Positions 725 to 41,916 of a stretch of DNA of 41,916 bases are shown here, piece after piece (the first letter of the stretch is position 1; every line of letters begins with the position of its first letter). This stretch comes from a virus. Position numbers and translations under genes: made by a program. The DNA lies in the UHGV virus genome UHGV-0326656, one strand, 5' to 3'. Under the pieces are notes generated by a model that made no database searches, was not told where the DNA came from, and saw only the letters and a list, made by a program, of their open reading frames with translations.

Positions 725-1179
725 CAGGCAGCCCTCACGATATAATTAAAGGCAATGTTACGAGGTCGGTTTTCGTTTGCAGTTGGAACAACTCTGGAAG
801 CATCGAATGTTACTCGCTTTGCATAACCACCTTTAATTGAATCCGATGAAGCATCTCCGATGACGCTGGTTGTAAAAACGCCAGAATCAGAAGGATAGGT
901 ATTGAACCTGACATCCACTAATGCACCAATTATATTTCGAATGGCATCGCCCTGTGATGAAAGCAAGCTACGGTTAGTATCTATTCCTCTTCCGTCATCC
1001 CAGCCACGAATAAACTCACCACGTAAATCTGGCAATTTATTTGTCGGATAAACTTTTGCCAGTTCCGGATACTCTTCGGCAGAAAAAGGCGCACCATTGC
1101 ATTTCAGCCAGCCTGTTGGCGGAGTGGCTGAAGGCCACGGAACAGGCACACCAACGGGTAATGCCGAACCTTCTCCCAA
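724..1179 (-). CDS. alternative tail fibre C-terminal (receptor-binding) segment; no ATG of its own, opens inside the crossover site
   Basis: Frame opens with TTG inside the gix-like site; Gly/Pro-rich tip sequence ending NIAFNYIVRAA; stop overlaps the Tfa' start. Confidence 0.6.
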   Translation of the reverse strand: MGEGSALPVGVPVPWPSATPPTGWLKCNGAPFSAEEYPELAKVYPTNKLPDLRGEFIRGWDDGRGIDTNRSLLSSQGDAIRNIIGALVDVRFNTYPSDSGVFTTSVIGDASSDSIKGGYAKRVTFDASRVVPTANENRPRNIAFNYIVRAA

Positions 1180-1196
1180 ACCAACCTTTTAGAAAA
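1171..1196. other. hix/gix-type 26-bp invertase crossover site
   Basis: TTCTCCCAAACCAACCTTTTAGAAAA matches the remembered hixL site at about 20 of 26 positions; lies between the variable fibre segment and the invertase start; its reverse complement shares core TT and half-site GGTTTGGGAGAA with 40359..40384. Confidence 0.6.
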
Positions 1197-1249
1197 TGCA
1201 GTAATTCCGCTCAGATGGCATGATCCAAGCTTTTTAAGGGGCATTTCTC

Positions 1250-1360
1250 ATGCTCATCGGTTATGTACGTGTGTCAACAAATGACCAGAACACCGCATTG
1301 CAACGAAACGCACTGGAGTGCGCAGGATGTGAACTGATATTCGAGGATAAGATCAGCGGC
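1250..1360 (+). pseudogene. serine DNA invertase (Pin/Gin/Hin family), 5' fragment of 37 codons
   Basis: MLIGYVRVSTNDQNTALQRNALECAGCELIFEDKISG matches the invertase N-terminus including the catalytic-Ser motif; similarity stops after codon 37. Confidence 0.7.
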
Positions 1361-1588
1361 AGATGGGGGGGCAGTCAGGGGGTTGCCCAGCTCAATTTGT
1401 TTGATGAAAACGCGCCACGCCCGGGTAGTGAGAAACTGATGGAAGTGTTGGATCACCTCAACGCCAAAGACGGCAGGGGAACCTTGTACTTTACCAGGCA
1501 GGGTATCCAGCCACAGTTGCAGATGAAACGCGAGATGCTTTCACCTAGATATACAACGAGATATGATGACATATTAAGAGTTAAATAG
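1361..1588 (+). pseudogene. UmuC-like Y-family polymerase subunit, 3' fragment fused in frame to the invertase remnant
   Basis: Tail ...QLNLFDENAPRPGSEKLMEVLDHLNAKDGRGTLYFTRQGIQPQLQMKREMLSPRYTTRYDDILRVK resembles the UmuC/MucB C-terminus as remembered; no upstream umuC body. Confidence 0.5.
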
Positions 1589-1607
1589 AACATCAGCGAG
1601 GTGATAA

Positions 1608-2603
1608 ATGAAAGGGATATATTATGAGAATACTCGAACCTCTATACCGGGGTGGATATCAAACCTTCATGAAACTCAAAGGTTTGGTTACGCTTATGAA
1701 ACAAGTACTCACTTTGTTCATTTATATGGTAAAGCTGAACCTTTTAATGTCATATCAGTTGGCCTTACCGCAATACAAGGTAAAAGTGGGACTCTAAATG
1801 ATTGGGTTATAAATACATTTGGAGCAACTAACATCCAAACATTACAAAATGATATCGGACATGTTGTTGAAGGTGTCTGGAGACCATCTTTATATTATAG
1901 CGATGACATTCAAGGTGCGTTGTTAGTTGATCCGTTCGAGAAAATGTCGTCAGGACAAGCTCTGCGCAATCTTATTAATAAACTCGATGAATTATTTTTG
2001 TACATTGAGCCAAGCATCACAGGTCTGAAAGCATATAGCCATAAATGCAGGGAGCTATTAATTTTGGCTTGTACAGAAGTTGAGAATCAGTGGGTGTCAC
2101 TGATAAAAAAAACAAACCTAAATAATGTAGGGGCTAGATATACAACTAGGGACTATGTACGGCTTGCAGATAAATGTTTTTTAAAAGAATACAAGGTGAA
2201 TTTTAAAAATTACTCAGGCTTAAGAGATTTCACACCATTTTTATCTTGGGTTCCGACTGCCTCTACTGGCTCTTTACCTTGGTACGATGCTTATAATGGA
2301 ACTAAGCATGATAGGGAAGCAGGTTTTAATCTCGCATCATTGGAGAATGTGATGGATGCCTTATCTGCTTGTATAGTATTGTATTGTGTTAAATATGGAC
2401 CTTATGATTTGGTGTCTGGTGGGGATCTGCTTTCAGGAACGTTTAACGAGCATTTTTCTCTTAGTTTCATAAATAGTGATAAAAGTAGCTATTACGTTCC
2501 CGAATTGAATTTTAACGCAAACGCAATAACAGACTTGTGTGTGATTGACTGTTATAGAGAAAAACTCAACAAAGCATGGGTTACAGAACCTCTTGTTTTA
2601 TAG
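1608..2603 (+). CDS. hypothetical protein, 331 aa, AT-rich orphan (candidate accessory/defence gene)
   Basis: Long ORF with GAGGTGA ribosome-binding site 7 nt upstream; markedly AT-rich versus flanks; no family recognised. Confidence 0.65.
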   Translation: MKGIYYENTRTSIPGWISNLHETQRFGYAYETSTHFVHLYGKAEPFNVISVGLTAIQGKSGTLNDWVINTFGATNIQTLQNDIGHVVEGVWRPSLYYSDDIQGALLVDPFEKMSSGQALRNLINKLDELFLYIEPSITGLKAYSHKCRELLILACTEVENQWVSLIKKTNLNNVGARYTTRDYVRLADKCFLKEYKVNFKNYSGLRDFTPFLSWVPTASTGSLPWYDAYNGTKHDREAGFNLASLENVMDALSACIVLYCVKYGPYDLVSGGDLLSGTFNEHFSLSFINSDKSSYYVPELNFNANAITDLCVIDCYREKLNKAWVTEPLVL

Positions 2604-2841
2604 GTAGTATTAATTCAGCACCTTGATTTTTTGTATTTCCCACGGCACGCGTCACGGCGTGCCAGATAAACGTGTCGGCAGACGCTGTACCCTTAGCAAC
2701 AATCTCCTCCACCACTCTACCTACGACATTCTGCCGTATCCACTCACGAGCTGCTTCCGGTGATAGCACCAGCGGCCGGCGATCATGAATATCTACCAGC
2801 CCTTTATCCGCAGCAGTAGTTACAATCAGGAACCCCTCAGC
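2581..2841 (-). pseudogene. yedK: SRAP (YedK-like abasic-site peptidase), C-terminal part, separated from N-terminal part by IS3
   Basis: Minus-strand frame reads AEGFLIVTTAADKGLVDIHDRRPLVLSPEAAREW...GNTKNQGAELI, matching the YedK C-terminus; in frame with 4100..4525 once IS3 and one AGC copy are removed. Confidence 0.8.
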
Positions 2842-2897
2842 TGATCTTACCCAGCAATAGTGGACACGCAGCTAAGTGAGTAAACTCTCAGTCAGAG

Positions 2898-3206
2898 GTG
2901 ACTCACATGACAAAAACAGTATCAACCAGTAAAAAACCCCGTAAACAGCATTCGTCTGAATTTCGCAGTGAAGCCCTGAAGCTTGCTGAACGCATCGGTG
3001 TTACTGCCGCAGCCCGTGAACTCAGCCTGTATGAATCACAGCTCTACAACTGGCGCAGTAAACAGCAAAATCAGCAGACGTCTTCTGAACGTGAACTGGA
3101 GATGTCTACCGAGATTGCACGTCTCAAACGCCAGCTGGCAGAACGGGATGAAGAGCTGGCTATCCTCCAAAAGGCCGCGACATACTTCGCGAAGCGCCTG
3201 AAATGA
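2898..3206 (+). CDS. insE: IS3 transposase OrfA (HTH subunit)
   Basis: [42 protein letters not shown]... recognised as IS3 OrfA. Confidence 0.9.
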
Positions 3207-4069
3207 AGTATGTCTTTATTGAAAAACATCAGGCTGAGTTCAGCATCAAAGCAATGTGCCGCGTGCTCCGGGTGGCCCGCAGCGGCTGGTATACGTGGTG
3301 TCAGCGGCGGACAAGGATAAGCACGCGTCAGCAGTTCCGCCAACACTGCGACAGCGTTGTCCTCGCGGCTTTTACCCGGTCAAAACAGCGTTACGGTGCC
3401 CCACGCCTGACGGATGAACTGCGTGCTCAGGGTTACCCCTTTAACGTAAAAACCGTGGCGGCAAGCCTGCGCCGTCAGGGACTGAGGGCAAAGGCCTCCC
3501 GGAAGTTCAGCCCGGTCAGCTACCGCGCACACGGCCTGCCTGTGTCAGAAAATCTGTTGGAGCAGGATTTTTACGCCAGTGGCCCGAACCAGAAGTGGGC
3601 AGGAGACATCACGTACTTACGTACAGATGAAGGCTGGCTGTATCTGGCAGTGGTCATTGACCTGTGGTCACGTGCCGTTATTGGCTGGTCAATGTCGCCA
3701 CGCATGACGGCGCAACTGGCCTGCGATGCCCTGCAGATGGCGCTGTGGCGGCGTAAGAGGCCCCGGAACGTTATCGTTCACACGGATCGTGGAGGCCAGT
3801 ACTGTTCAGCAGATTATCAGGCGCAACTGAAGCGGCATAATCTGCGTGGAAGTATGAGCGCAAAAGGTTGCTGCTACGATAATGCCTGCGTGGAAAGCTT
3901 CTTTCATTCGCTGAAAGTGGAATGTATCCATGGAGAACACTTTATCAGCCGGGAAATAATGCGGGCAACGGTGTTTAATTATATCGAATGTGATTACAAT
4001 CGGTGGCGGCGGCACAGTTGGTGTGGCGGCCTCAGTCCGGAACAATTTGAAAACCAGAACCTCGCTTAG
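3203..4069 (+). CDS. insF: IS3 transposase OrfB (DDE catalytic subunit)
   Basis: 288-aa ORF overlapping orfA, with integrase-core motifs (...[10 protein letters not shown]..., ...HTDRGGQY...). Confidence 0.9.
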
Positions 4070-4099
4070 GCCTGTGTCCATATTACGTGGGTAGGATCA

Positions 4100-4525
4100 A
4101 GCTTCATCGCCACGTTCAAATGGTGTGCTGCCAATAGCGGCCATGAATATAGGCTGGCCGTCAGCCCTGCGAATGAAGTAGGGCTGTTTTATAATGCCTT
4201 CGCGCTTCCATTCGAACCAACCATCAGCAAAGCAAATTGCACGTCCATGCAACCAGAGAGGTTTGAACATTCGGCTGGTGGCCGCAGTTTCTGAGCGTGC
4301 GTTAATCAGCGGAGGTTTATTCCACCATCCGGGAGCGAATCCCCAGATAACAGGATCGAGGTGCAACTGTTCGTCGCGTTCGCTCAAAAGCAGAACTTTG
4401 GTACCGGGTGCAACGTTGAATCGTCCAATTGGTTCTGGAACGTATGGGATGTCACGCTCAGCTTCTTCTGATAGGAGGGCAAGATAGTCTTCACGCGTCA
4501 TTGATTGGGCGAAACGTCCGCACAT
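4100..4525 (-). pseudogene. yedK: SRAP (YedK-like), N-terminal part, truncated by IS3
   Basis: MCGRFAQSMTREDYLALL...FMAAIGSTPFERGDEA has the Cys2 catalytic start of SRAP/YedK; the frame runs into the IS3 end. Confidence 0.85.
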
Positions 4526-4566
4526 AGAAACCTCCAGTCACCAGACTGAAAGTATAGGGTAGGGAT

Positions 4567-4590
4567 ACAAAAAAGCCCGCATAAGCGGGC
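4567..4590 (-). terminator. rho-independent terminator-like hairpin
   Basis: On the minus strand GCCCGC-TTAT-GCGGGC followed by TTTTTT, between the ssrA fragment and the SRAP start. Confidence 0.45.
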
Positions 4591-4721
4591 TTTCATGTCA
4601 CTCGGGAGCCGCGGCTCCTTTACGTATCCTTTTTTGTCTCCTCACCGTCTAGTCGGTGTCCTGCTGAGACTGCTAACTTCCTGTTTTTGTTAGTGCTGTC
4701 CTGGCACTGTCCAATCATGAT

Positions 4722-4749
4722 TGGTGGAGCTGGCGGGAGTTGAACCCGC
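4722..4749 (-). other. ssrA: 28-nt 3' end of tmRNA (ssrA) ending CCA; att-core-like relic
   Basis: Minus strand reads GCGGGTTCAACTCCCGCCAGCTCCACCA, identical to the ssrA 3' terminus as remembered; upstream sequence does not continue ssrA. Confidence 0.7.
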
Positions 4750-5040
4750 AGACACGTCGTATGCAAGAACTTGCTGCGGCTGGATGGTGGACTTTCGATA
4801 GTGCGAGTATTGAATGATGTCCAGCCGTTATTGATTTTACGTATTTTTTGCATGAAAAGATTAGCACCTCATCCCACCGCTCCTCCATGATTTTACACCA
4901 CTGTCTCTAGAGCTCTGTGTGCCAGAAGCGGAAGTTCATACCTCTAAGTGGATATTTTGTTAAAATATGCCATCAAAATCCTTGCTACCTCATGGTTGAC
5001 AGTGATAAAAGTTGCACAAATTACTGAGAGAGAAATTACA

Positions 5041-5478
5041 ATGAGTGGAGATACCTCTGAGTTTCCTAATAAACTTCCCAGAAAGCCAATTGGTTGGCGT
5101 GAAGAATATAGTGATTTTACAGGTAGTATTATATTCTATATGATATTCCCGTTGCTTCCATTACTTTTTGAGTCAATTAACACAGGAACTCACCCTTCAA
5201 TACAATCATTAACAATTACTGCATCAATATACTCTTTTTCCATCGGTGTATCTTCTCGAGATAAAGCTATTTTTTGCTTAGGGATTTTTTGTGGTTTCAT
5301 TCTCGCTTATCTTTACGGTAAAGTTAGTGAGCCAAAAGTTATTATATATACCTGGTACTATGTAGTTACGGTGATACTACTGGCTGTAATATTTATATTT
5401 CATCTTCTCGAACGATTTAATAAACACGTGGTAGAATGTGAACCTGTTTTCTCCTTTAAGTTTACGAGAGGTATGTAA
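5041..5478 (+). CDS. hypothetical multi-pass membrane protein (alternative start at 4948)
   Basis: AT-rich ORF with several hydrophobic segments (FYMIFPLLPLLF, IFCLGIFCGFILAYLY, VVTVILLAVIFIF); perfect -35 TTGACA about 40 nt upstream; stop overlaps the next start (TAATG). Confidence 0.6.
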   Translation: MSGDTSEFPNKLPRKPIGWREEYSDFTGSIIFYMIFPLLPLLFESINTGTHPSIQSLTITASIYSFSIGVSSRDKAIFCLGIFCGFILAYLYGKVSEPKVIIYTWYYVVTVILLAVIFIFHLLERFNKHVVECEPVFSFKFTRGM

Positions 5479-5945
5479 TGGAGGATATTATATTTATGTA
5501 TGCTGGGTTGATAGTGTCTTCTTTAGCGGCAATTGTAGGCTTAGCTACATCTATCATGCATACTCGTAAAAAAGTTAAAGCTAATGAAGAGCTTGCAACT
5601 GAAATGGCAAAGAGCTTTAGTGAGCTTGAATCTATCAATAAAAGCATAGGGGATTTGGAAGCGACAATTAAAAGGATAGATGAAGATGAATTAAAGTTAA
5701 GAATAGCAATTGAATCTTTAAAGGAAATGACTTCTGATGAAAAAAAAGAATCTAGGGATATGTTGAAAAACATCGTTAATGATGAGGTGTTCATTAAAGT
5801 TCTTCTCGAAAGCTATAAAAAACTGGATACCCAGTCAAAGAAGGAGATTTATTTGACTTTTTCCAAGTCGACAGATAGAGGCCTTTATCGATATATAAAA
5901 AGAATAGCTTCATCAGTACTCGATAACTTAATGGTTAAAATATAA
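5478..5945 (+). CDS. hypothetical protein with N-terminal transmembrane helix and charged coiled-coil-like C-terminal region
   Basis: AT-rich; MEDIIFMYAGLIVSSLAAIVGLATSIM then K/E-rich heptad-like sequence; translationally coupled to the upstream ORF. Confidence 0.65.
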   Translation: MEDIIFMYAGLIVSSLAAIVGLATSIMHTRKKVKANEELATEMAKSFSELESINKSIGDLEATIKRIDEDELKLRIAIESLKEMTSDEKKESRDMLKNIVNDEVFIKVLLESYKKLDTQSKKEIYLTFSKSTDRGLYRYIKRIASSVLDNLMVKI

Positions 5946-6500
5946 ATGCGTGCGCGCGAGATACAATTTCTCGCGCATTGTGTAACCGGCGACAAAACCC
6001 TGTTATCATTATAGCGACCCGTTTAGATGGGCCATTTGTGCCCCAACAGCTTCTGGGTATAGATTTCCTCGGCCCTGTATAGATACTTTGCTAAAGAGTA
6101 TTTTAATGGTATTTTGCTTACGTACCATTCTTCTAACGAATGTCTGCCTTATCCTGTGAGCTGCCTTCGCTCAGCATTGGCCTGTTTCTCGTTGATTTAT
6201 ATACTGCGACACTAACATAGGCGGATATGTCCGCTCCTCGCTCATAACAGACATTCACTACAGTTATGGCAGAAAGGTATGCATGCTGGGTGGGGAAAGT
6301 ATGAAGGAAAAGAAAACTGCTGCGCTGTTTGTCGTCACGTTTATCTTCATTGGCTATGCAAGTCATAATACAAGGTGGGACAAAACTGAGACACATAAGG
6401 CCTCACAATGGCTTGCAAGGCTTTACATGTTTTGATGTGGTGGGACGTGTGAGCGCAGTGTTGATGGGGTAATGCTTTGAATTAGAAGCGGATTCTTATA

Positions 6501-6546
6501 ATTCGTAATGCGAAGGTCGTAGGTTCGACTCCTATTATCGGCACCA
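6501..6546 (+). other. thrW: 3' 46 nt of tRNA-Thr(CGU) (anticodon loop to CCA); prophage att core, not a complete tRNA
   Basis: ATTCGTAATGCGAAGGTCGTAGGTTCGACTCCTATTATCGGCACCA matches the tRNA-Thr(CGU) 3' part; upstream 30 nt cannot form acceptor/D arms; integrase gene starts 15 nt downstream on the opposite strand. Confidence 0.75.
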
Positions 6547-6560
6547 TTTAAATCAATAAG

Positions 6561-7724
6561 TTACACATCATTAGTACCTTCCTTATTTTTTGACTGGGAC
6601 AAATTTGGGACCGATGGGTTCAGGATCGAGTCTATTTGCCGTGCGTGCTCGGTAAGGTGATTAGGTGCAAGGTGAGCATATCGACGAACCATTTCGATAG
6701 ACTCCCAGCCTCCCATTTCCTGTAACACTGACAACGGGACTCCGGCTTGAACCAGCCAACTTGCCCAGGTGTGTCTCAGGTCGTGAAATCTGAAATCATC
6801 AATACCAGCCCGTCTCAGCGCCGCTTTCCAGGCTGTGTTTGCGTCATACCGCATCTTCCTTACTGTTGGCGCTTTCGTTCCGTCTGGTTTGGTACAGCTT
6901 TCCTTGTACACAAATACCCAACGGTGATGATTCCCGATTTGTTTTTTCAAAACGCGACATGCAGTATCATTCAGCGCAACGCCGATTGCGCGGTTTGATT
7001 TACTCTCTTCCGGGTTTATCCATGCCACTCGGCGCTGCATATCTATTTGTTGCCATTCAAGGTTGATGATGTTCGAGCGTCTTAAGCCTGTTGCCAGTGC
7101 AAATTCAACAACAGACTTTAATGGCTCCGGACATTCATCAATCAGCCTTTGTGCTTCATGGGGCTCCAGCCAGCGGATCCGTTTATTCTTTGGTTGAGGC
7201 ACTTTAATAATTGGTGCCTTATCCAGCATTTTCCATTCACGCTCTGCGGCTCTTAGTAGGGCCTTTATAAATGAAAGATGCGTAGCCTTCGTTGCAACGG
7301 ACGCTGGTTTTGGCGTGTATTCTGGAACAGGTTTCCCTTTTTTTCTGCATGCTTCTGCCCTGAGTTTCCAGTTTTCCTCATGACGCCGGTTCGTCATTTT
7401 CTGCATTGCTGAATAAATTTTTGATTCAGTAATGTCTCTTAGTTGCATTCCTGCGAAATGTTGAAGCCAGAATCCGATCCGGCTTTTGTCATCGTCCAGT
7501 GATTTTTTATGTGCTTTCTCTTCAAGCCACCTGACACATGCTTCCTCGAACGTTATATCAGGTATTTCACCAAGTTTACTGACCCGCCATGCTTCAGCCT
7601 TTAGCTTGTCATGGAGTTCTGTCGCCTGCCTTTTGTCCTTTGTTCCAAGAGACTGTTTAAATCTTTTACCGTTCGGCAATGTGAAACTGGCGTACCATAT
7701 TTCACCTCTGCGGAAGAGTGACAT
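6561..7724 (-). CDS. int: tyrosine-type phage integrase
   Basis: 387 aa with C-terminal catalytic region ...[39 protein letters not shown]; adjacent to tRNA fragment. Confidence 0.95.
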
Positions 7725-12497: not shown

Positions 12498-13190
12498 TTA
12501 ATTATGTCTCTTAAGGGTTTGCGACTGACTGATTAAGACCTTTCCAAAGACCATGAATCGGTGTTCGTTTTCGCTAGTAATTCCCCATTCACGGTAAATC
12601 TGGTTATCAGAAATCACCAGCAGTTTGTCAGGAATCATTTGAAGTCTTTTAACGTATATTTTGTCATCAAAACCAAAGACATATATACCATCACCATCAA
12701 ACTGATTGATGCTGACATCAACGAAGATGAGATCTCCTGGCTCAATGGTTGGACACATACTGTCCCCACGAACGTTGATAACTTTGATGTGATTGGCTGG
12801 TCGTCCGCCGAACATTGATACAGCATTATCAGTTCTGTATTCGATGGCATGAATCACATCAATGACATCACCGCCCTGGATAAGGCCATTTCCCGCACTG
12901 GCACTGATATCCAGCATTTCAATACGGAACACATCCTTCACCTGCGCAACATCCTCATTGTTACTGTTTTTATATACAGTATTACTTTTGTGGGCAGAGG
13001 TAAAGAGATCAGCAATATCAACACCTAAGCTCTTGGCAATATTACTCAGTGTTTGTTCGGTAAATTGTTTTTGCTTACCCGTTTCTAAGCGCGAGATGTT
13101 CGCCGCATCTACTCCTATCGCTTCAGCGAGATCGGCGATTTTCATGTTCTTCGCTTGGCGAAGTTGTCTGACTCGGTTTCCTATGTTCAT
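12498..13190 (-). CDS. cI: CI-type repressor (N-terminal HTH, C-terminal S24 LexA-like peptidase domain)
   Basis: N-terminal HTH (VRQLRQAKNMKIADLAEAIGVDAANISRLETGK) and C-terminal ...INVRGDSMCPTIEPGDLIFVD...KIYVKRL with Ser/Lys dyad; divergent from cro. Confidence 0.9.
   Translation of the reverse strand: MNIGNRVRQLRQAKNMKIADLAEAIGVDAANISRLETGKQKQFTEQTLSNIAKSLGVDIADLFTSAHKSNTVYKNSNNEDVAQVKDVFRIEMLDISASAGNGLIQGGDVIDVIHAIEYRTDNAVSMFGGRPANHIKVINVRGDSMCPTIEPGDLIFVDVSINQFDGDGIYVFGFDDKIYVKRLQMIPDKLLVISDNQIYREWGITSENEHRFMVFGKVLISQSQTLKRHN
12962..12981. promoter_or_regulatory. near-consensus LexA (SOS) box inside the cI coding sequence
   Basis: TACTGTTTTTATATACAGTA = CTGT-N8-ACAG with AT-rich spacer, about 18 of 20 to the consensus TACTGTATATATATACAGTA; falls in the cI interdomain linker. 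Confidence 0.5.
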
Positions 13191-36408: not shown

Positions 36409-37484
36409 ACGACAATGTCACGCTACGGGTAAATGGCCGGGAGTGGAATGGCTGGACATCGGTGCGCATCGGTGCCGGTATTGAACGGCTGGCGCGGGAT
36501 TTCAGTGTGGAGATCACCCGCCAGTGGCCGGGTGATGAGGGTATCACCACGCTTCAGCCGCGCATTAAAAACGGTTCAAAAGTGGAGGTGCTGATTGGTG
36601 ATGAGCTGGTGATCACCGGCTGGGTGGAGGCGACGCCCGTTCGTTACGATGCCCGTTCGGTCAGCACCGGTATTGCCGGACGCAGTCTGACCGCTGACCT
36701 GATTGACTGTGCAGCCGAACCGACACAGTTTAACGGACGATCGCTGGTACAGATTGCGCAGGCGCTTGCTGCGCCTTTCGGCATTGAGGTGGTGAACAAC
36801 GGTGCGCCGTCGGGTGTTATTCCTGACATCCAGCCTGATCACGGCGAAACGGTGATTGAGGTGATCAACAAAATACTCGGTCAGCAGCAGGCACTGGCTT
36901 ACGACGACCCGCACGGCAGGCTGGTGATTGGCGGTATTGGCTCAACTCGGGCACATACCGCGCTGGTACTTGGGGAAAACATCCTTTCCTGCGATACGGA
37001 GAAGAGTATCCGGGAGCGGTTTTCAGTTTACCAGGTGGCGGGGCAGCGTGCCGGAAACGACGATGATTTCGGTGAGGCCACCACCACCGCGCTGCGGGCC
37101 CGCACAGAGGACGCATTTATTGCCCGTTACCGTCCGATGTATATCAGGCAGACAGGGCAGGCCACGGGGGCAGGCTGTATTGCGCGTGCTGACTTTGAAG
37201 CCCGACAACGGGCGGCGCGGACGGATGAAACCACTTATGTGGTGCAGGGCTGGCGACAGGGTAACGGTACGCTGTGGCAGCCCAACCAGCGGGTGATTGT
37301 CTTCGATCCGGTCTGTGGTTTCGACAATACCGAACTGCTTGTTTCGGAAGTCACGTTTACTCAGGACCAGAACGGCACCCTGACGGAAATCCGTGTCGGC
37401 CCGCCTGATGCTTATCTGCCTGAACCCGAAGATCCCGGCGCGCGGAAAAAGAAAAAAGCCAGAGTACAGGAGGACCCGTTCTGA
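36405..37484 (+). CDS. baseplate hub protein (Mu P / gp44-like)
   Basis: 359 aa in conserved Mu-like order. Confidence 0.8.
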   Translation: MNDNVTLRVNGREWNGWTSVRIGAGIERLARDFSVEITRQWPGDEGITTLQPRIKNGSKVEVLIGDELVITGWVEATPVRYDARSVSTGIAGRSLTADLIDCAAEPTQFNGRSLVQIAQALAAPFGIEVVNNGAPSGVIPDIQPDHGETVIEVINKILGQQQALAYDDPHGRLVIGGIGSTRAHTALVLGENILSCDTEKSIRERFSVYQVAGQRAGNDDDFGEATTTALRARTEDAFIARYRPMYIRQTGQATGAGCIARADFEARQRAARTDETTYVVQGWRQGNGTLWQPNQRVIVFDPVCGFDNTELLVSEVTFTQDQNGTLTEIRVGPPDAYLPEPEDPGARKKKKARVQEDPF

Positions 37485-38032
37485 TGAGGGCGATTGAAGC
37501 CATGCAGCGACAACTTCTCGGCCTGATTGGGCGGGCCGTGGTGAAAAGCATCAGTGCCGGCACGAAATGTCAGACCGTGGATGTGTCCCTGATTGCCGGT
37601 GAACCCAAAGCCGGGGTTGAACATCTTGAACCCTACGGTTTTACCGCAAGGGCAAACAGCGGTGCGGAAGCGGTGGTGTTGTTTCCGGATGGCGACCGTT
37701 CTCATGCGGTGGTTGTTACGGTGTCGGACCGGCGCTACCGCCTGAAAGGGCTGCAGACGGGTGAGGTGGCTGTCTATGACGATCAGGGGCAGTCCGTGAC
37801 GCTGACCCGGGAGGGGATCGTGGTGGACGGTGCAGGTAAAACGATCACGTTTCGCAATTCACCTAAAGCACGTTTTGAAATGGACCTGGAAGTGACAGGA
37901 CAGGTGAAAGACCTGTGCGACTCCAGCGGCACTACCATGTCAGCGATGCGGCTTGCCTATAACGGGCATCGTCACAGAGAGAACGGTCAGGGCAGTAACA
38001 CCGACAAACCGGATAAAGCGATGGAGGCATGA
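37484..38032 (+). CDS. baseplate spike/assembly protein (Mu gp45, P2 V-like)
   Basis: 182 aa in conserved order. Confidence 0.75.
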   Translation: MRAIEAMQRQLLGLIGRAVVKSISAGTKCQTVDVSLIAGEPKAGVEHLEPYGFTARANSGAEAVVLFPDGDRSHAVVVTVSDRRYRLKGLQTGEVAVYDDQGQSVTLTREGIVVDGAGKTITFRNSPKARFEMDLEVTGQVKDLCDSSGTTMSAMRLAYNGHRHRENGQGSNTDKPDKAMEA

Positions 38033-38457
38033 TGGAACTGTGGCTGACGGTGAACGGTAAACGCACCTGCGCCAGCGCACCGCTGGATCCGCTGACCCGC
38101 GCCGTGGTGATTTCCCTGTTTACCTGGCGGCGGGCGGAGCCTGATGACAACGCCGACGTCCCGATGGGATGGTGGGGGGATACCTGGCCTGCGGTACAGA
38201 ATGACCGTTACGGCTCCCGACTGTGGCTGCTTCAGCGCAGCAAACTGACCAATCAGCTGGTGCAGACGGTAAGGGGGTATATCCGCGAATGCCTGCAATG
38301 GATGATTGATGACGGCGTGGTGTCCCGTATTGATCTGGATATCCGCCGCACCGGGATTAATGAGCTGGGTAACAGTATCACCCTCTGGCGTCGTGACGGA
38401 CCGGTAATGATTTCTTTTGATGATCTGTGGAGTGCGATAACGCATGGCGGACAGTGA
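38029..38457 (+). CDS. baseplate protein (Mu gp46, P2 W / T4 gp25-like)
   Basis: 142 aa in conserved order. Confidence 0.75.
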   Translation: MMELWLTVNGKRTCASAPLDPLTRAVVISLFTWRRAEPDDNADVPMGWWGDTWPAVQNDRYGSRLWLLQRSKLTNQLVQTVRGYIRECLQWMIDDGVVSRIDLDIRRTGINELGNSITLWRRDGPVMISFDDLWSAITHGGQ

Positions 38458-39502
38458 ATTTCAGCGCCCGACGCTGGCAGAAAATATCAGTATGCTCCGT
38501 AACGATTTATTCGCCAGGCTGGACGTCAGCGACACGCTCCGGCGCATGGATGAAGACGTGCGGGCAAAGGTGTATGCGGCGGCGCTGCATACGGTTTACG
38601 GGTACATCGATTATCTGGCAATGAACATTCTGCCTGACCTGTGCGATGAGTCCTGGCTGGCGCGACATGCTGCGATGAAACGGTGTCCGCGCAAGGGGGC
38701 CACGGCTGCCAGCGGGTATATGCGCTGGGAAGGTGTCAGCGATGGCCTGAAGGTGACCGCCGGGAGTGTTATTCAGCGCGATGACCTGGTGCAGTACACG
38801 GCAACTGCCGATGCAACCAGCTCCGGTGGTGTCCTGCGCGTGCCGATCGCCTGCTCAAATGCAGGCGCGGTCGGTAACGCTGACGACGGTACGGCATTAA
38901 TCCTGGTCACGCCGGTGAATGGTCTGCCGTCTTCCGGTGTGGCTGACACCCTGACAGGCGGATTTGATACTGAAGAGCTGGAAACGTGGCGCGCCCGCGT
39001 CATTGAGCGGTATTACTGGACGCCGCAGGGTGGGGCTGACGGGGACTATGTCGTCTGGGCTAAAGAAGTGCCCGGCATTACCCGCGCATGGACATACCGT
39101 CACTGGATGGGAACGGGAACTGTCGGTGTGATGATTGCCAGCAGTGACCTGATTAATCCCATTCCGGAAGAATCAACGGAAACGGCGGCAAGACAACATA
39201 TCGGGCCACTGGCCCCGGTGGCAGGCTCTGATTTGTATGTGTTCAGGCCGGTGGCACATACGGTGGATTTTCATATCCGCGTGACGCCGGACACACCGGA
39301 AATACGGGCTGCCATCACCGCGGAGTTGCGTTCGCTCCTGCTGCGTGATGGTTATCCGCAGGGAGAACTGAAGGTATCGCGTATCAGTGAGGCGATTTCC
39401 GGTGCGAACGGGGAATACAGCCATCAGTTGCTTGCACCGGCAGACAATATCTCCATTGCAAAAAATGAACTGGCGGTACTGGGGACGATTTCATGGACGT
39501 GA
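38444..39502 (+). CDS. baseplate J-like protein (Mu gp47)
   Basis: 352 aa in conserved order. Confidence 0.8.
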
Positions 39503-40077
39503 CAAACGATGATTACATCCGTCTGTTGTCGGCACTGTTGCCCCCCGGTCCGGCGTGGTCAGCCAGCGATCCGGCGATTGCCGGTGCGGCACCGTCATTA
39601 ACCCGCGTTCATCAGCGTGCGGATGCCCTGATGCGGGAGCTGGATCCGCGCACCACCACTGAACTGATAAACCGCTGGGAGCGTCTGTGCGGTCTGCCGG
39701 ATGAATGTATTCCCGCAGGGACACAGACCCTTCGCCAGCGTCAGCAACGGCTGGATGCGAAGGTTAACCTGGCGGGCGGCATCAACGAGAATTTTTATCT
39801 TGCACAGCTTGCTGCCCTGGGCAGACCAGACGCTACCATCACGCGATACGACAAAAGCACGTTCACCTGCTCATCGGCCTGTACTGACGCGGTGAATGCG
39901 CCGGAATGGCGGTATTACTGGCAGGTCAACATGCCAGCCGCCACAAACACCACCTGGATGACATGTGGCGATCCCTGTGATTCCGCGCTGCGTATCTGGG
40001 GCGACACCGTTGTCGAATGTGTGCTTAACAAACTCTGCCCGTCGCATACCTACGTAATTTTTAAATATCCGGAGTAA
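39493..40077 (+). CDS. tail protein (Mu gp48 / P2 I-like, YmfQ-type)
   Basis: 194 aa immediately upstream of the tail fibre gene. Confidence 0.7.
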
Positions 40078-40080
40078 TCC

Positions 40081-40728
40081 ATGCATCGTATAGACACGAA
40101 AACCGCGCAGAAGGATAAGTTCGGCGCGGGTAAGAACGGTTTTACCCGTGGTAACCCCCAGACAGGCACGCCTGCCACCGATCTGGATGATGACTACTTT
40201 GACATGTTGCAGGAAGAACTCTGCAGCGTGGTGGAGGCATCCGGTGCCAGCCTGGAGAAGGGGCGAAACGACCAGTTGCTTACCGCGCTTCGTGCTCTGC
40301 TGTTAAGCCGCAAGAATCCGTTTGGTGATATCAAATCGGATGGCACGGTGAAAATGGCTCTCGAAAACCTTGGTTTGGGAGAAGCGGCAAAACGGAATGT
40401 GGGGACAGGAGAAAATCAGGTACCGGATATGAACAACTTTGGTAACTCATTGACCGCCAATGGATACCAGAAATTACCTGGGGGGATGATTATTCAATGG
40501 GGGAGTTTTTCTGTCTCACCAACCGGAGGAAGTGTTGGAACAGTTGATATAACATTACCTGTAGCTTTCCCTGCTGCTTGTCGTTCGGTAAACGCTCTTA
40601 TTTCAACTAATGATCCTTCTGCCCGTTCTGTGGGCTTTGATATTGGAAGTACCAACAGAACTAAAATCAGATTTACTTACACTTCTGCTACAACAAATTC
40701 AATTTACTGGATGGCTGTGGGGTATTAA
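40081..40728 (+). CDS. tail fibre protein with conserved N-terminus and swappable C-terminal tip
   Basis: [24 protein letters not shown]... fibre N-terminus; composition turns AT-rich after the crossover site at 40359-40384. Confidence 0.8.
40359..40384. other. hix/gix-type crossover site inside the tail fibre gene (left boundary of the invertible segment)
   Basis: CTCTCGAAAACCTTGGTTTGGGAGAA: two 12-bp half-sites around a TT core; right half-site identical to the reverse complement of 1171-1196; encodes ...ALENLGLGE... at the constant/variable junction. Confidence 0.6.
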
Positions 40729-40730
40729 CT

Positions 40731-41162
40731 ATGGAAAAGACATATTATTTTAATCCCTCTGATTCGGGATTTTATATTTCACCAGATAGCCAAACCATTC
40801 CTGAGAACGCTACGAAAATAAACTTTACTATTTATTCTGAGTTCGCAGGAGTTGCATGGCCTGATGGTAAAATACTTGGTTCAGATAAAAATGGTTTTCC
40901 AGCATGGCAGGATGCGCCACCACTTACCAGCGAAGAATTAATCTCAATCGCTGAATCAAATAAACAGCGATTAGTTAATCAGGCCAACGAATACATGAAC
41001 AGTAAACAATGGCCTGGTAAAGCGGCGATTGGTCGTCTGAAAGGTGAGGAACTGGCGCAATATAATTTGTGGCTGGATTATCTGGACGCACTGGAACTGG
41101 TCGATACTTCCAGTGCGCCAGATATTGAATGGCCTACGCCTCCGGCAGTTCAGGCCAGATGA
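40731..41162 (+). CDS. tail fibre assembly protein (Tfa)
   Basis: 143 aa immediately after the fibre gene; C-terminal 50 aa shared with the inverted copy. Confidence 0.85.
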   Translation: MEKTYYFNPSDSGFYISPDSQTIPENATKINFTIYSEFAGVAWPDGKILGSDKNGFPAWQDAPPLTSEELISIAESNKQRLVNQANEYMNSKQWPGKAAIGRLKGEELAQYNLWLDYLDALELVDTSSAPDIEWPTPPAVQAR

Positions 41163-41736
41163 CATCCGGCGCGGTGCTGGTATCTGTTGCCGTCACCGCG
41201 TCAATGTAATCCAGCACAGCGTTAAGTCTGGTTGTTTCTGCCTGCGTCGGTTTACGTCCGGCCTGCAATTTCAGTTGAATCAGACTGATGGAAGCCATTG
41301 CTGCATCAATCAGTGACTGGCGCTGTGCTTCTGCCGCTTCTACTGCGGCACCGTATTGTGCCTCAGTATCTGTCACCCATTTTTCACCATCCCATTTATC
41401 GTATGGCGTTAACGGGGCGATAGTGGTTGTATTTTCGGGATAGTCGCCTAGTGCTGTGATTTCTTTGGCATCTCCCGTTTCGGTGTTATAGACTATTTCA
41501 CCTCGATGGTCTGACACATATTCCCATGATTTTAAATCCACAGAACGGAAAATTGTATAACCAGCCTTATATGTACCAGGAGCGTCTAAACAGGAATATG
41601 CAGGGATACCGACACCAATGGCAAGATATTCATTTGAAGTGGAAATATATTCCCGTGTTTCGCCATCATAGTTATAGACGGTAATATTTCCCGCCTTTGT
41701 AGCAATAAACTCGCTATTTAATACAGCGTTATCCAT
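41134..41736 (-). CDS. tail fibre assembly protein, inverted-orientation copy (Tfa')
   Basis: 200 aa, convergent with Tfa; about 85% identical to the 122..724 ORF. Confidence 0.85.
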   Translation of the reverse strand: MDNAVLNSEFIATKAGNITVYNYDGETREYISTSNEYLAIGVGIPAYSCLDAPGTYKAGYTIFRSVDLKSWEYVSDHRGEIVYNTETGDAKEITALGDYPENTTTIAPLTPYDKWDGEKWVTDTEAQYGAAVEAAEAQRQSLIDAAMASISLIQLKLQAGRKPTQAETTRLNAVLDYIDAVTATDTSTAPDVIWPELPEA

Positions 41737-41737
41737 T

Positions 41738-41916
41738 ATGCAGCCCTCACGATATAGTTAAATGCAATATTCCGTGGGCGAGTATCGGCAGGAACGACAT
41801 ACATTTCACCAATTGCCCGCTCATTAGAGTTGTTCAGCAATAGGCTTGAGCCATTACTGTCATGACCCGTAATTAAGATATCATTGGACAAAATAAGTGA
41901 GCCCGTACCTGCAGGA
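41738..41916 (-). CDS. alternative tail fibre C-terminal segment, partial (runs off the window)
   Basis: Minus-strand frame ...NDILITGHDSNGSSLLLNNSNERAIGEMYVVPADTRPRNIAFNYIVRAA with stop overlapping the Tfa' start; same terminal motif as the 724..1179 ORF. Confidence 0.7.

Follow-up and report, generated by a model that had tools for sequence, protein, structure and literature searches.

A minus-strand SRAP gene (positions 2581–4525) in virus genome UHGV-0326656, whose whole 41,916-nucleotide stretch is referred to here as the window, has been split by a 1258-bp IS3 element that occupies positions 2842–4099 on the plus strand. The arrangement is that of a plain IS3 insertion, accompanied by a 3-bp target-site duplication and by no deletion, and a natural empty site in Escherichia coli TB06052 settles that the insertion is real. 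The most convincing explanation, and in our judgement very probably the right one, is a stepwise decay in which IS3 entered an orphaned, redundant, prophage-borne SRAP paralogue, with effectively neutral consequences.

The split gene and its empty site

The elements of the interrupted gene, apart from IS3 itself, are as follows:

4097–4525, minus strand: truncated 5' part of the SRAP gene; a 142-aa open reading frame (ORF) that starts with the ATG at 4525 and keeps Cys2, Asn75 and Glu105
4100–4102: right target-site duplication, AGC, directly after IS3
2839–2841: left target-site duplication, AGC, which on the minus strand is the codon GCT for Ala142
2581–2841, minus strand: detached 3' part of the SRAP gene, codons 142–227 and the stop codon, holding His160 (in DIHDRRP)

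IS3 starts with TGATCTTACCC (TGATC...) and ends with GGGTAGGATCA (...GGATCA), and its imperfect terminal inverted repeats match ungapped at 27 of the first 39 positions. All 1258 bp are present and a copy of AGC flanks either side, so that both ends are intact and the duplication is unmutated, as the original prediction had held. For a 3-bp repeat alone, the probability of a chance occurrence is 1/64. When IS3 is excised and one AGC is dropped (2581–2841 joined to 4103–4525), the two halves form a single, uninterrupted minus-strand ORF of 227 aa. This agreement of frame after precise excision in silico, previously reported from a check by hand, holds upon recomputation, and there is no frame clash between the halves.

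What did the gene look like before IS3 arrived? When window positions 1200–6600 were compared by megablast with 5,426 complete E. coli genomes, one genome, that of TB06052 (NZ_CM129848.1), matched everything except IS3, with 99.7% identity over 4,106 bp. RefSeq annotates the gene in this strain as intact, under the name "SOS response-associated peptidase" (WP_057075763.1). The SRAP gene excised in silico is identical to the TB06052 gene at 684 of 684 nucleotides (the detached 3' part is 100% identical to the corresponding part), and the empty site reads ...CCCCTCAGCTTCATC..., with a single AGC. Comparison with an IS-free allele from a related strain, which had been proposed as a check on the insertion, thus bears it out.

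The restored 227-aa protein matches the Pfam SRAP family (PF02586) over profile positions 1–213 of 214, with E=2.5e-48 and a score of 164.9 bits, the cut-off being 27.1 bits. It is 81% identical to E. coli YedK (182 of 224 residues) and matches the YedK chains in the PDB (6NUA, 6KBS and 2ICU) with E-values of 1e-126 to 2e-127. The earlier assignment of the split gene as SRAP, or YedK-like, is therefore secure. Cys2, Asn75, Glu105 and His160 are all conserved. In YedK, Cys2 makes the thiazolidine link to the abasic site, and Glu105 and His160 provide acid–base catalysis (PMC9436759).

In the interrupted gene, His160 is parted from Cys2, Asn75 and Glu105. The reading frame halts after codon 142, at a TGA (4097–4099) that is contributed by the IS3 terminus, leaving a 142-aa product without the last 85 residues; an intact, expressible SRAP gene is thus absent from the window. 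The remnant is most likely inactive, to judge from its sequence, mainly because 85 structural residues have been lost and not because of His160 alone: in vitro, the drop in cross-linking by YedK upon H160A mutation is only some 10-fold (PMC9436759). The appropriate annotation for the locus is an IS3-disrupted SRAP pseudogene in decaying prophage cargo, not a pair of small ORFs.

The inserted element

IS3 carries two open reading frames:

2907–3206, plus strand: orfA, 99 aa, with the Pfam domain HTH_Tnp_1; open
3203–4069, plus strand: orfB, 288 aa, with a DDE integrase core (Pfam rve, rve_2 and HTH_21); open

IS3 proper is 1258 bp long and makes a 3-bp target duplication (ISfinder and older literature). 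The copy in the window is 100% identical over 1258 bp to many E. coli copies annotated as "IS3-like element IS3 family transposase", and its identity and its two intact ORFs are as originally predicted. It shares with IS3 of E. coli (IS3 family, IS3 group) not only the sequence, the TG...CA ends and the imperfect inverted repeats, but also the arrangement of its ORFs (orfA in frame 0, orfB in frame −1), the AAAAG motif, the 387-aa fusion and the 3-bp duplication. The element itself shows no difference; the insertion site alone is specific to the present allele. Database records with a best match of at least 99% to this copy number 4,071, with a median of three places per genome having any, and the window holds only one.

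The two ORFs overlap at 3203–3206, with orfB in the −1 frame. The AAAAG motif lies at 3169–3173, and the orfB frame is open from 3173, so this motif is presumably the site of a −1 frameshift. A slip of one base back after the AAG codon would lead to a predicted fused OrfAB of 387 aa. A 387-aa fused product is in fact annotated for the identical IS3 copy in one of the assemblies discussed below (L004), and RefSeq labels it "programmed frameshift"; in four other assemblies (L005 and L008–L010), gene callers have called orfA as 99 aa. By its sequence, then, this copy looks fully competent for transposition.

Elements of the IS3 family, which encode OrfA, OrfB and OrfAB, as a rule move by a copy-and-paste mechanism (PMC11708052). 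Since such elements copy out and paste in, the suggestion that this IS3 is possibly still mobile does not mean that the SRAP gene could be restored by its departure; the copy stays put.

A module in decay

The cargo around the SRAP gene includes the following:

1250–1588, plus strand: pin'::'umuC, an in-frame fusion of about 38 aa of the N-terminus of a Pin-type invertase to the UmuC C-terminal domain DUF4113
1608–2603, plus strand: a gene for 331 aa between the umuC remnant and the SRAP gene, matching phrog_19461 over its full length
4726–4753, minus strand: a 28-nt copy of the 3' end of ssrA (tmRNA), recognized by similarity to E. coli 19AR1321

The fusion matches Pfam Resolvase and DUF4113, as well as the PHROG families for DNA invertase and DNA polymerase (profile positions 355–425 of 425). 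Homology to pin of other E. coli prophages stops at position 1363, and positions 1372–1562 share 76% identity with the 3' end of the intact umuC-like genes of E. coli 20A24 and 19AR1321. The fusion is the scar of a deletion in which umuD, the greater part of umuC and the remainder of pin were lost. All that is left of the UmuDC (Pol V) module in the window is the C-terminal DUF4113 of UmuC, about 70 aa, and the deleted umuDC-like module that had been noticed beside the SRAP gene is confirmed by this remnant, with its DUF4113 and its PHROG DNA polymerase match.

The intact order of such a module can be seen in E. coli 20A24 and 19AR1321, where an S24 peptidase (UmuD) and a Y-family polymerase are followed by a convergent SRAP gene, the 3' end of which overlaps that of umuC. 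Aravind et al. (2013) also described a linkage between SRAP and UmuCD, on the basis of gene neighbourhoods (PMC3765255). As in these modules, the SRAP gene of the window and the 3' end of umuC converge. Unlike them, the window has lost umuD and most of umuC, with the remainder fused to pin, and its SRAP gene is separated from the umuC remnant by the 331-aa gene. Moreover, whereas those modules lie at the side of ssrA, that of the window sits in a thrW prophage. Window positions 4101–4749, which include the 5' flank of the SRAP gene and the intergenic region, are 83% identical to the stretch of 19AR1321 (L014) that runs from SRAP to the 3' end of ssrA, and the 28-nt ssrA fragment would accordingly be the relic of a SRAP module that once lay beside ssrA and took a piece of this att region along. 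No tRNA, tmRNA or Rfam family was called anywhere in the window, where ssrA and thrW are represented just by fragments. Neither the E. coli nor the phage collections yielded an intact ancestor with pin, umuD, umuC, the 331-aa gene and SRAP in the same arrangement.

The 331-aa gene is convergent with the SRAP gene, their 3' ends overlapping by 23 bp, and has a homologue in phage SEN8 that adjoins cos. Pfam and PADLOC returned no hit for this gene, nor did PADLOC give a convincing defence-system hit for it or for the neighbours of 176 and 155 aa. Neither the SRAP gene nor the umuC remnant has a LexA-box-like site (CTGT-N8-ACAG) in its vicinity, such matches occurring at chance level, and a scan of positions 1100–6700 for promoters and terminators stayed at background.

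Two observations concern the window at large. The sole exact match to the LexA-box-like pattern lies at 12964, in a second prophage. The possibility that the window is one circularly permuted prophage was rejected, as its terminal overlap (1–756 versus 41013–41768) is just 88.8% identical and stops there.

A paralogue of yedK

The disrupted gene is not the chromosomal yedK. At the sensitivity of megablast, the allele is intact in one of 5426 complete E. coli genomes (TB06052), and relatives at about 79% identity occur in five. With the more sensitive blastn, annotated yedK genes, at 73–77% nucleotide identity, are found in 5378 of the 5426. The same search finds two SRAP places in TB06052, which we read as the prophage gene and yedK. 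Compared with E. coli YedK (PDB 6NUA, 6KBS and 2ICU), the restored protein belongs to the same length class and has the same four residues. However, the gene itself sits elsewhere, as prophage cargo next to a umuC remnant and not at the chromosomal yedK site; it is only 73–77% identical at the nucleotide level, it is rare, and it is split by IS3. On these comparisons, the disrupted gene is an extra, mobile paralogue of yedK. From the near-universal presence of yedK in E. coli, the chromosomal gene very probably persists in the source strain as well.

The original prediction had left open whether loss of SRAP was neutral decay or altered damage tolerance. The near-universal chromosomal yedK favours the former, and the loss would probably have been neutral. 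The two alleles nevertheless form a natural pair, intact in TB06052 and disrupted in the window, that could be used to probe the role of a second, phage-borne YedK paralogue in tolerance of abasic sites.

Spread and age of the disrupted allele

Several public assemblies, independent of one another, encode precisely the same 142-aa product. In five of these (L004, L005, L008, L009 and L010), both IS3 junctions are found on single contigs and are identical to those of the window. The assemblies that span both junctions are:

GCA_036919395.1 (a 552-kb NCBI contig)
ERR5311152
SRR22784968
SRR35009035
SRR12704876

The 142-aa allele is also carried by GCA_023874585.1, GCA_012598365.1 and SRR12183986. 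In three further short-read contigs (L006, L007 and L011), the sequence breaks off at the IS boundary, and most of the contigs that bear the allele are 100% identical to the window across several kilobases. The allele is absent from the representative genomes of a one-genome-per-species collection that was searched for the exact junctions, and among the complete E. coli genomes, the megablast comparison of the 5.4-kb region turned up none that has IS3 at the site.

A large protein collection has the exact pin'::'umuC fusion protein on 43 contigs and the intact SRAP protein on 37. For the 142-aa truncation it gave 10 contigs, and a separate look-up gave 18. The disrupted allele thus accounts for about a fifth to a third of the contigs with the prophage module (10–18 versus 37 intact), a share for which clonal sampling or weak selection might be responsible. 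The pin'::'umuC fusion is also present in TB06052, which is free of the IS. Together with the contig counts, this indicates that the umuDC deletion predates the IS3 insertion, which arose within that lineage.

Is the insertion recent? The original claim holds only insofar as there is no substitution in either IS3 or the halves of the gene. An allele found in at least five independent assemblies is not private to one strain. Identity of the copies thus points to one insertion event that has been inherited or is spreading, and not to a private transposition that has just happened. The perfectly conserved IS3 could serve as a lineage marker for strains that share the insertion. It is otherwise a known IS in a known gene family, and the allele is already in the public databases as a partial SRAP protein. 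This is ordinary biology, with little significance beyond annotation.

Why was the SRAP gene lost?

The account of neutral decay that we favour would have proceeded in several steps. A prophage integrated at thrW would have acquired a umuD–umuC–SRAP cargo module near its right end. A deletion reaching into pin would then have removed umuD and most of umuC and fused pin to the umuC tail, leaving the SRAP gene an orphan that was redundant with the chromosomal yedK. Later, a canonical IS3 would have inserted in codon 142 of this gene, with the usual 3-bp duplication, and the disrupted allele would afterwards have been inherited by, or spread among, several E. coli isolates.

Alternatively, the knock-out might have been adaptive: once the Pol V genes were gone, an orphan SRAP protein, by trapping abasic sites covalently, could have been costly or could have perturbed lesion bypass, and cells or prophages with the IS3 allele would have been selected. 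Gene neighbourhoods link SRAP functionally to UmuCD (PMC3765255), and the disrupted allele is not rare among carriers (10–18 contigs versus 37 intact). It also occurs in at least two genomic configurations, as a single prophage by a LysR-type fragment and paoD (L004) and, in the window, in tandem with the second prophage. However, all copies go back to one identical insertion event, and no convergent hits were seen. Most carriers retain an intact SRAP gene in spite of the identical umuDC deletion, and E. coli tolerates its chromosomal yedK constitutively. Selection of the allele is thus unlikely.

A more elaborate version of this idea would have umuD, umuC and SRAP travelling as a self-contained, mobile damage-tolerance cargo between integrated elements and bringing the 28-nt ssrA fragment, as a relic of an att site, into the thrW prophage. 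Subsequent loss of Pol V would have made the orphan SRAP a liability, with positive selection for its inactivation by IS3. We consider this chain of events quite improbable; if true, it would constitute a natural genetic test of the interplay between SRAP and Pol V in bacteria.

Could IS3 instead have altered the expression of neighbouring cargo? IS3 has been reported in the older literature to act as a mobile promoter. As a promoter or terminator, it might affect the 331-aa gene (1608–2603) or the two ORFs at 4948–5945, and read-out in the direction of the transposase is indeed aimed at the latter, which are on the plus strand. However, a strong, GC-rich hairpin with flanking runs of A and T (at about 4570–4597) lies between IS3 and these ORFs. 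The 331-aa gene, for its part, is upstream of IS3 and convergent with it, with its stop codon 239 bp away, and the sites predicted by a promoter scan do not outnumber those in shuffled sequence. An effect of this kind is very doubtful.

Finally, IS copies are a classic cause of misassembly, and the three related short-read contigs that end at the IS boundary might suggest that collapse of repeats had misplaced IS3 into the SRAP gene. Such an artefact is effectively refuted by the five independent assemblies, the 552-kb NCBI contig among them, in each of which one contig spans both junctions, the sequence is identical and the duplication is perfect.

Apparent tandem prophages at thrW

A fragment of a tRNA gene closes the prophage with the SRAP module, and a second element begins beyond it:

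6501-6547, plus strand: 3' fragment of a tRNA-Thr gene, thrW type (ATTCGTAATGCGAAGGTCGTAGGTTCGACTCCTATTATCGGCACCA), adjoining the integrase gene
6561-7724, minus strand: integrase gene, beside the tRNA-Thr fragment
6561 to beyond 41916: right (second) prophage

No full tRNA was called at the fragment, which marks the right attachment site of the SRAP-module prophage. In strain D9 and in L004, an assembly with identical IS3 junctions, homology to the window stops at 6564 and is followed by a truncated LysR-type gene and paoD, whereas the window continues into the second integrase and its prophage. Since these take the place of the LysR-type gene and paoD, two related prophages appear to lie in tandem at thrW.

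In the left and right prophages, the Mu-like baseplate and tail modules are near-identical, but the tail-fiber tip cassettes differ. A tfaE-type tail-fiber assembly gene is present in both copies of a direct repeat (1-756 and 41013-41768; 88.8% identity), at the ends of which the similarity also ends. In ERR5311152, another assembly with the same IS3 junctions, the prophage with SRAP has a tail region that is 99.97% identical to the second prophage of the window (37109-40384).

Inversion of the tail-fiber segment

The left prophage also contains an invertible segment:

1-1184 (5990-7173 in ERR5311152): invertible tail-fiber segment
around 1170-1195: crossover site (TTCTCCCAAACCAACCTTTTAG)

This segment is reversed in ERR5311152 relative to the window, L004 and the IS-free E. 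coli strain TB06052, with 100% identical sequence. The truncated pin and the IS3 insertion are the same in the window and in ERR5311152, and the flip therefore postdates the loss of the cis invertase. Presumably, it was catalyzed in trans by another Din-family invertase.

Cargo genes and island relics

Three further genes accompany the SRAP remnants:

1608-2603, plus strand: 331-aa protein, full-length match to phrog_19461
4948-5478, plus strand: 176-aa small ORF, terminal cargo region
5478-5945, plus strand: 155-aa small ORF, terminal cargo region, adjacent to the 176-aa ORF

The 331-aa gene separates umuC and SRAP ends that once overlapped. Its product had no match in Pfam or PADLOC, and its sole phage homologue (59% identity) is encoded by the P2-like Salmonella phage SEN8, as the first gene past cos. 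The first of the two small ORFs looks to encode a membrane-embedded product. The matches of both are limited to PHROG families without an assigned function and to weak PADLOC matches below threshold (capH, LmuB). Both are conserved at the terminus of another prophage, which occupies this chromosomal site in strains D9 and D4.

Positions 6230-6360 are 85% identical to non-coding sequence upstream of umuD (L014 2776-2909) in the island that flanks ssrA in E. coli 19AR1321, and are a second relic of that island, now apart from the umuC and SRAP remnants. The single exact LexA-box-like palindrome (CTGT-N8-ACAG) in the window, at 12964-12979 (CTGTTTTTATATACAG), is located in the second prophage, within a 230-aa ORF (12498-13190, minus strand).
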